Shown here in pieces: positions 51,680 through 52,190 of a DNA stretch of 64,000 bases. Position 1 is the stretch's first letter, and each line of letters opens with the position of its first letter. The stretch lies in contig NC_043009.1 of the NCBI RefSeq assembly GCF_006345805.1, positions 67,952,001 to 68,016,000 on the forward strand, written 5' to 3'. Source of the DNA: Octopus sinensis (lineage: Eukaryota). Below the pieces are notes generated by a model, which was given only the letters and a program-made list of their open reading frames with translations, ran no database searches and had not been told where the DNA came from. The position numbers and the translations under genes were made by a program.

Positions 51680-52190
51680 AGGAATTATTTACATTATTTA
51701 CATCTTGTTTGTTGTTAACAGAACGTTTTGGCTGATATATGCTCCAGCCTTCATCAGGTGTCTTGGGGAAACTTTGGACGTGGGTTCTCATTCCTTAGTT
51801 ATTTTTCGATGTTATTATTATTATTATTATTATTATTATTATTATTATTATTATTATTATTAGAGCGCAGGCTACTATCCTCAAGATTCCGAGTTCGATT
51901 CCAGGCAGTGACCTGAATAATAATAATAATAATAATAATAATAATAATAATAATAATAATAATAATAATAATAATAATAATAATAATAAGAAGAAGAAGA
52001 AGAAGAAGAAGAAGAAGAAGAAGAAGAGGAAGAAGAACAACAACAACAACATCGAAAAATACCTTAGGAATGAGAACCCTATTCGGAATTTTCCCAAGAT
52101 GAAGGTTGGAGAATATATCAGCCGAAACATTGTATTAATAACAAACAAGATGAGGACAAATATCCATCAAATGTAAATAATGTAAATTAT
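51680..52190. mobile_element. Inverted pair of hammerhead-bearing Penelope-like tails flanking (TAA)n and a truncated tRNA-like head
   Basis: Arms ~51680-51812 (-) and ~52048-52190 (+); motifs acac-CTGATGA-a-ggctg..cagcc-aAAA-cg-TT (-) and gatga-a-ggttg..cagcc-GAAA-ca-TT (+); gagttcgattcc B box near 51891. Confidence 0.75.

Follow-up and report, generated by a model that had tools for sequence, protein, structure and literature searches.

The locus

The window, a stretch of 64,000 nucleotides of the Octopus sinensis genome, harbors two related repeat arms arranged head to head (Table 1). From 51860 to 52187, a tRNA-like head, a simple-repeat spacer and a hammerhead-bearing tail follow one another in the order given by the earlier note on this DNA, and the inverted second tail that the note had placed upstream is also present, being 78% alike to the direct tail over 111 nt. 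The extent of 51680 to 52190 given there takes in the element on the plus strand and is too short on the minus strand, where the inverted arm reaches 51659. The inverted arm has its ATG at 51791-51789 (minus strand) and carries a Penelope extension of ~30 nt at about 51659-51686, and the direct arm terminates, without this extension, at the shorter of the two 3′ ends of the family. The head is cut just after the position of the A box and there meets the (TTA)n belonging to the inverted arm; the arms share a TTA overlap near 51860-51862. The pair lies in the (ATT)n that trails an older SINE-like repeat, the end of which is (ATT)22 at 51590-51656.

As had been described, the lesions of the two tails differ. 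When compared with copies from elsewhere, the inverted arm shows G12A, a change in helix I and the loss of 21 nt after the ribozyme, and the direct arm is missing 8 nt, so that C3-U4 and the 5′ strand of helix I are gone. The window copy is a decayed head-to-head pair and is dead, and the insertion itself has no special function.

Other features of the window were observed beside the element. A (TTC)n(TTA)n tract at 52201-52338 shows 91% complementarity to the element's spacer across 127 nt; the two are probably coincident microsatellites, and RNA pairing between them could occur. Another tRNA-like head with a B box, at 15015-15075, belongs to a different repeat family, and a 1.4-kb (CAT)n array of 464 units is located at 42156-43549.

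Table 1. Features of the head-to-head insertion and its target in the window
Feature	Position	Strand	Remark
Older SINE-like repeat with (ATT)n tail, unrelated; likely insertion target	51385..51656	+	16 further BLAST matches in the window
Inverted arm: Penelope ORF start, broken minimal hammerhead, extension	51659..51811	-	
Minimal type I hammerhead motif of the inverted arm (G12A, helix-I change)	51717..51761	-	Predicted inactive
Simple-repeat spacer of the inverted arm	51812..51862	-	
tRNA-derived head, 5′-truncated	51860..51915	+	A box lost; B box 51891-51902 intact
Spacer (AAT)n(AAG)n(AAC)n linking head to ORF start	51916..52049	+	
Direct arm: Penelope ORF start	52050..52187	+	ATG 52070-52072
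Hammerhead remnant of the direct arm, without the 5′ strand of helix I and C3-U4	52098..52135	+	Predicted inactive

Head and tail as one genomic unit

Exact matches in the genome numbered 8,269 for a 27-nt motif of the tail and 3,221 for a 24-nt motif of the head, both of which are lower bounds. The reversed control of each motif gave 0 matches, so that chance occurrence of the motifs is excluded. A head was found at most 700 nt upstream in 22 of the 30 top-ranked tail loci, and a tail was found downstream in 28 of the 29 top-ranked head loci, which bears out the proposal that head and tail form one unit genome-wide. The separate searches for co-occurrence that had been suggested gave the same picture: among 90 heads taken in positional order from one contig, with an exact motif match required, 75 had a tail at a distance of at most 560 nt. 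That the two parts came together by chance insertions is ruled out by their co-occurrence at head, tail and endonuclease loci.

Of 15 tail-less heads, 14 were inspected: several contained another element in the spacer and two had a tail further on, and a free head-only SINE that could have acted as donor was not seen among these 14. Other retroelements are repeatedly inserted into the (AAT)n spacer (L006, L025, L028, L030, L145, L148, L170 and L181), and tail-only copies are often located where other elements end in (AAT)n.

The unit is the terminal repeat of a coding element

One tail continues into a Penelope-like N-terminus, and another locus has a nuclease frame ahead of the head. Across 30 endonuclease loci, which include three near-identical loci and one query, the head lies ~123 nt past the end of the nuclease in 29, and in the corresponding count for the ORF N-terminus the tail lies directly 5′ of it in 24 of 30; that is, the head-tail unit stands both after the end of the ORF and before its beginning, in the tandem arrangement known as a pLTR. 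In the family, the end of the ORF is followed by a short UTR, the head, (AAT)n, the beginning of the ORF with its hammerhead motif, and two fixed 3′ ends, which form clusters ~30 nt apart (tail positions 143-149 and 174-176). A full-length, decayed copy (L121) comprises an inverted tail, a short repeat, the ORF, the UTR, the head, the spacer and the tail, and its translation, with X at stops, matches the reverse transcriptase (RT) family PF00078 (E 8.1e-09).

The C-terminus of the protein resembles GIY-YIG/HTH_animal protein clusters (score 0.96-0.97), of whose members 11-22% carry PF01541 and 12-55% carry PF26215; a Pfam search of the C-terminus for PF01541 itself gave no match. By eye, this C-terminal nuclease has the CCHH motif and lacks the CX2-5CxxC linker finger. 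The tail contains an ATG, from which a frame running through the ribozyme into the N-terminal domain is open in two and broken in three of five translated copies. The tail is thus made up of the initial 123-156 nt of the ORF.

By every feature of its sequence that was tested, the unit is a member of the Penelope/Poseidon group, an assignment made without a tree, and head, spacer and tail together are the terminal repeat of an autonomous element of this type, not a separate SINE. The view of the earlier note that the unit is moved by Penelope enzymes is retained, and its reading as a SINE with a borrowed Penelope tail has to be given up, because the head sits inside the terminal repeat of a coding element, both at the endonuclease loci and in L121. 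Because contigs from four other organisms bridge the junction of UTR and head, the fusion also occurs in relatives.

In one related organism, the nuclease region (aligned to L092:1500-1770) shows variant letters at high depth, hinting at a distinct, perhaps younger subfamily. RNA editing was considered for A>G and T>C differences in RNA and was rejected, since DNA contigs carry them too.

The hammerhead motif

The motif in the tail is, as had been proposed, the minimal hammerhead of Penelope-like elements (PLEs): type I, with the core, helices I and II, an extra base and a palindromic helix III. The core of one copy (L045) gave a constrained fold of -11.4 kcal/mol and a self-duplex. The core is intact in 45 of 90 copies and the whole motif in 8. 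The motif of the family may be capable of self-cleavage, and both motifs in the window are predicted to be inactive. The folding z-scores obtained for the ribozyme stretches did not reach significance. The minimal hammerheads described for metazoan PLEs share with the octopus motif a short helix I, a long helix II, the extra base between positions 9 and 10.1, the G10.1-C11.1 pair, the palindromic 15.2-16.2 and the occurrence, dispersed over the genome, as single copies and opposite-strand pairs (PMC4209133). Compared with these, the predicted cleavage site of the octopus motif is GUU, and both window motifs are broken.

Rfam scans for hammerhead and tRNA, covering the window, 18 loci at the gathering threshold and three short stretches, returned only a tRNA hit of 11.2 bits (E 9) and no hammerhead in the family copies scanned, and ARAGORN called 0 tRNAs in the window and in 0 of 57 loci. 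Neither program made a call in the window; the identification of head and hammerhead rests on motif and geometry.

Hammerhead cleavage was also considered as the source of the 5′ ends of copies; the ends formed no clear cluster in 90 copies, of which 4 had an end within 3 nt of the predicted cleavage site, with ~1.6 expected. In unstranded RNA-seq no pile of ends was seen at the hammerhead, and no head-to-tail joint of the kind that circular RNA would give was found among the 15 joints listed, in a type of library unsuited to that question. The minimal PLE hammerhead is described as cleaving poorly and acting as a dimer (PMC4209133), and, in the account given for PAc, the Poseidon element of Anolis carolinensis, cleavage is not required for insertion (PMC11167929).

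The head as a candidate promoter

The A box that was to be expected in a full consensus is present in full copies, in which A box and B box are exact and the T8-to-G53 spacing of 45 nt is that of a tRNA. When the head was compared with tRNAs of the genome (six isotypes tried), Arg-TCT and Ala scored best (z 6.5-7.5) and are candidate parents. The head does not fold as a tRNA, and its acceptor stem is unpaired. From the two boxes and their spacing we infer that the head may be used by Pol III.

Runs of TTTT are scarce in the element: 27 long copies contain 26, against 52-58 expected, no site is common to more than 4 of the 27, and the terminal repeat of three copies examined has none. Four long control ORFs from other Penelope families have 8-13 such runs per 775-883 codons. 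The probability of zero TTTT was 0.007 with the codon usage of the controls and 0.06-0.12 on the element's own composition, in a comparison in which the controls belong to another clade and the element copies are not independent. The control loci (L392-L397, e.g. G000:C1:207474800-207478800) represent other Penelope families that are Neptune-like by eye and have open frames of 775-883 codons.

Three unstranded RNA-seq runs of a related organism consist mostly of read-through, with 75-81% of the reads continuing into unlike sequence. No pile of starts or ends at the repeat was seen in unstranded data of this kind, and the step in depth from head to UTR was 2.0-2.5x, not above the genomic ~3.6x.

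It is rather probable, as judged from sequence, that the window contains a decayed head-to-head pLTR insertion whose tRNA-derived head was likely the Pol III promoter of the element.

Short copies and their 5′ ends

Of the 90 heads taken in positional order, 65 begin at most 10 nt upstream of the motif, and the other 25 are linked to upstream sequence of the coding element (21 as scored by script and four reassigned by eye). A sample of 90 copies anchored on the tail, in which three were reassigned by eye and two duplicate pairs were retained, shows the same concentration: 23 of the 34 copies that reach the zone from -7 to +3 stop there, or ~6% per nt, compared with 21 of 90 stopping within 85 nt of the tail, or ~0.3% per nt. 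The start zone at the head is also used by copies without any inversion. Such a pile-up of 5′ ends is most simply explained by an RNA with its start at the head.

A separate short subfamily was looked for among 70 ORF-linked and 181 short units and was not seen: no substitution separates the two, divergence is 5-7% in both, and in the six columns that reach p<0.01 the difference is mostly one of gaps. Because these 251 units contain no diagnostic substitution and the unit, whose tail is the start of the ORF, is part of a coding element, the short copies behave like a SINE but do not qualify as a separate non-autonomous family.

Inverted pairs and a model of retrotransposition

An inverted partner is present in 52 of the 90 tail-anchored copies, and 34 of 39 pairs have one extension. 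Over the 120 inverted pairs from all fetched loci, the extension occurs on one arm in 109, on both in 4 and on neither in 7. Where the arms differ in their 5′ reach, the extended arm is the longer in 35 and the shorter in 43. One-arm extension and the ability of either arm to reach further 5′ are best fitted by two independent cDNAs, and the data suggest one cDNA per RT start and target strand. A simple fold-back as the source of the inversion is disfavored by the reach of the arms. In the window, the extension is on the shorter-reaching arm, consistent with two cDNAs.

For PAc, the protein is described as cutting and extending both strands, with cleavage at ATT and two internal RT starts, which define the genomic "tail" (PMC11167929). 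In a model that follows this Anolis Poseidon scheme, the RNA of the octopus element would start ~7-10 nt upstream of the head, would likely be made by Pol III and would continue into the ORF. Reverse transcription would have two internal starting points, which lie ~125 and ~155 nt downstream of the beginning of the ORF. A start in the upstream repeat would lead to run-off at the 5′ end of the RNA after 250-400 nt and hence to SINE-like solo copies, and a start in the downstream repeat would give ORF-bearing copies. At a cut (ATT)n target, each strand would prime one cDNA, and joining of the two cDNAs at short overlaps would form the inverted pair. The whole of this proposal, namely that a Penelope element captured a tRNA-type promoter, is transcribed end to end by Pol III and had its ORF purged of terminators, with internal RT initiation giving SINE look-alikes and priming on two strands giving inverted ends, is put forward tentatively, as a possibility somewhat short of probable.

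Alternative explanations

The solo copies themselves could be masters that are transcribed by Pol III, forming a SINE-like family that arose from the terminal repeat and is copied in trans by the Penelope protein. They are under 700 nt long, keep A and B boxes and outnumber the ORF-linked copies about 65 to 25, and their spacers are slightly longer (median 39 vs 27 nt, p 0.0007). The lack of a diagnostic substitution nevertheless speaks against true SINE masters, and the template described for Anolis Poseidon needs the first 172 nt of the ORF (PMC11167929), which is beyond what inserted copies keep; solo copies stop 123-156 nt after the ORF start and are without the TATAA that lies upstream. 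Such masters are accordingly considered unlikely. This TATAA, 28 nt ahead of the start zone, is compatible with either polymerase, and no consistent TATA pattern was found by eye upstream of real tRNA genes (27 flanks). Pol II, acting on a TATA-type promoter within the UTR, could be the enzyme that makes an RNA starting at the head, with the tRNA-like piece as a passenger, for example an old simple SINE inserted into the repeat: head and (AAT)n resemble a simple SINE, and the pLTR promoters known so far have been described as LINE-like internal promoters (PMC2377424). Against a passenger, both boxes are exact despite decayed tRNA stems, TTTT is absent from the transcription unit, and the CCAAT, CRE-like and TATA motifs and T5-T6 runs that one control Penelope family has in its repeat are, by eye, lacking here. 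The 14 tail-less heads, several with an inserted element in the spacer, likewise give no sign of a free head-only family, and a Pol II transcript of this kind seems slightly less likely than solo masters.

The pile-up of 5′ ends might also mark something other than a transcription start. The start zone coincides with a 5-bp palindrome (2-nt loop) that is the point of inversion in many junctions, and fold-back or annealing of cDNA ends at this edge of the head could place the ends there, as could cutting of an RNase P-like kind, for which it speaks that 21 of 69 non-linked heads begin at tRNA +1. However, non-inverted copies use the same zone, 0-10 nt upstream, and mostly retain the leader bases that RNase P removes; the acceptor stem is unpaired, the palindromic stem is short, and the reach of the arms in inverted pairs favors independent cDNAs. 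An origin of the pile-up in the palindrome or in RNase P-like cutting is therefore the least likely of these readings, and an RNA starting at the head is preferred.

Relation to known elements

PAc shares with the octopus element an RT with a C-terminal GIY-YIG-like nuclease, tandem pLTRs, an inverted 5′ copy, a hammerhead over the ORF start, a pair of 3′ ends separated by about 30 nt and an ATT-rich target (PMC11167929, PMC8557442). Unlike PAc as described there, the octopus pLTR opens with an A- and B-box-bearing head of tRNA origin, followed by an (AAT)n spacer, and most insertions that reach the head are solo repeats with their start at it. The SINE-like schistosome repeats SM-alpha and Sj-alpha also have a Pol III-type promoter followed by a hammerhead, but they are reported as non-coding tandem repeats (PMC6765202), whereas the octopus unit comprises the terminal repeat of a coding element together with the beginning of its ORF. 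With tRNA-derived SINEs the unit has in common the tRNA head, the short length and the thousands of copies; it differs from SINEs as defined in PMC3531059 in that no separate master was found and in having as its partner a PLE, from whose 5′ coding end the "borrowed" part comes. Non-LTR retrozymes are likewise short non-coding repeats with a type I hammerhead, but they are described as head-to-tail tandem arrays with circular RNA, whereas octopus copies are mostly single or head-to-head (PMC7229834). At four loci, mostly on contig C27 (L065, L068, L070 and L086), short tandem derivatives occur in which the ORF start and ~118 further bases are linked back to a second ORF start, giving retrozyme-like units of ~280 nt with one hammerhead each.

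No Penelope element with a tRNA or Pol III head was found in the open-access literature searched. Repbase or Dfam may contain the family, which could be one of the octopus SINEs OK/OR1/OR2.

Implications

Autonomous retrotransposons are held to be transcripts of Pol II and SINEs to be passengers of Pol III (PMC3531059), and a tRNA-like Pol III promoter in a coding retrotransposon would be unusual. If the proposal is true, a coding element driven by a tRNA promoter would make the line between Pol II and Pol III retrotransposons less sharp, and the translation of an uncapped Pol III RNA would need explaining. It would also show how an autonomous element can give rise to SINE-like families as side products. 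The origin of the inverted ends and of the one-sided "tail" of Penelope has been called undefined (PMC8557442), and the thousands of inverted pairs in this family allow it to be approached by counting.
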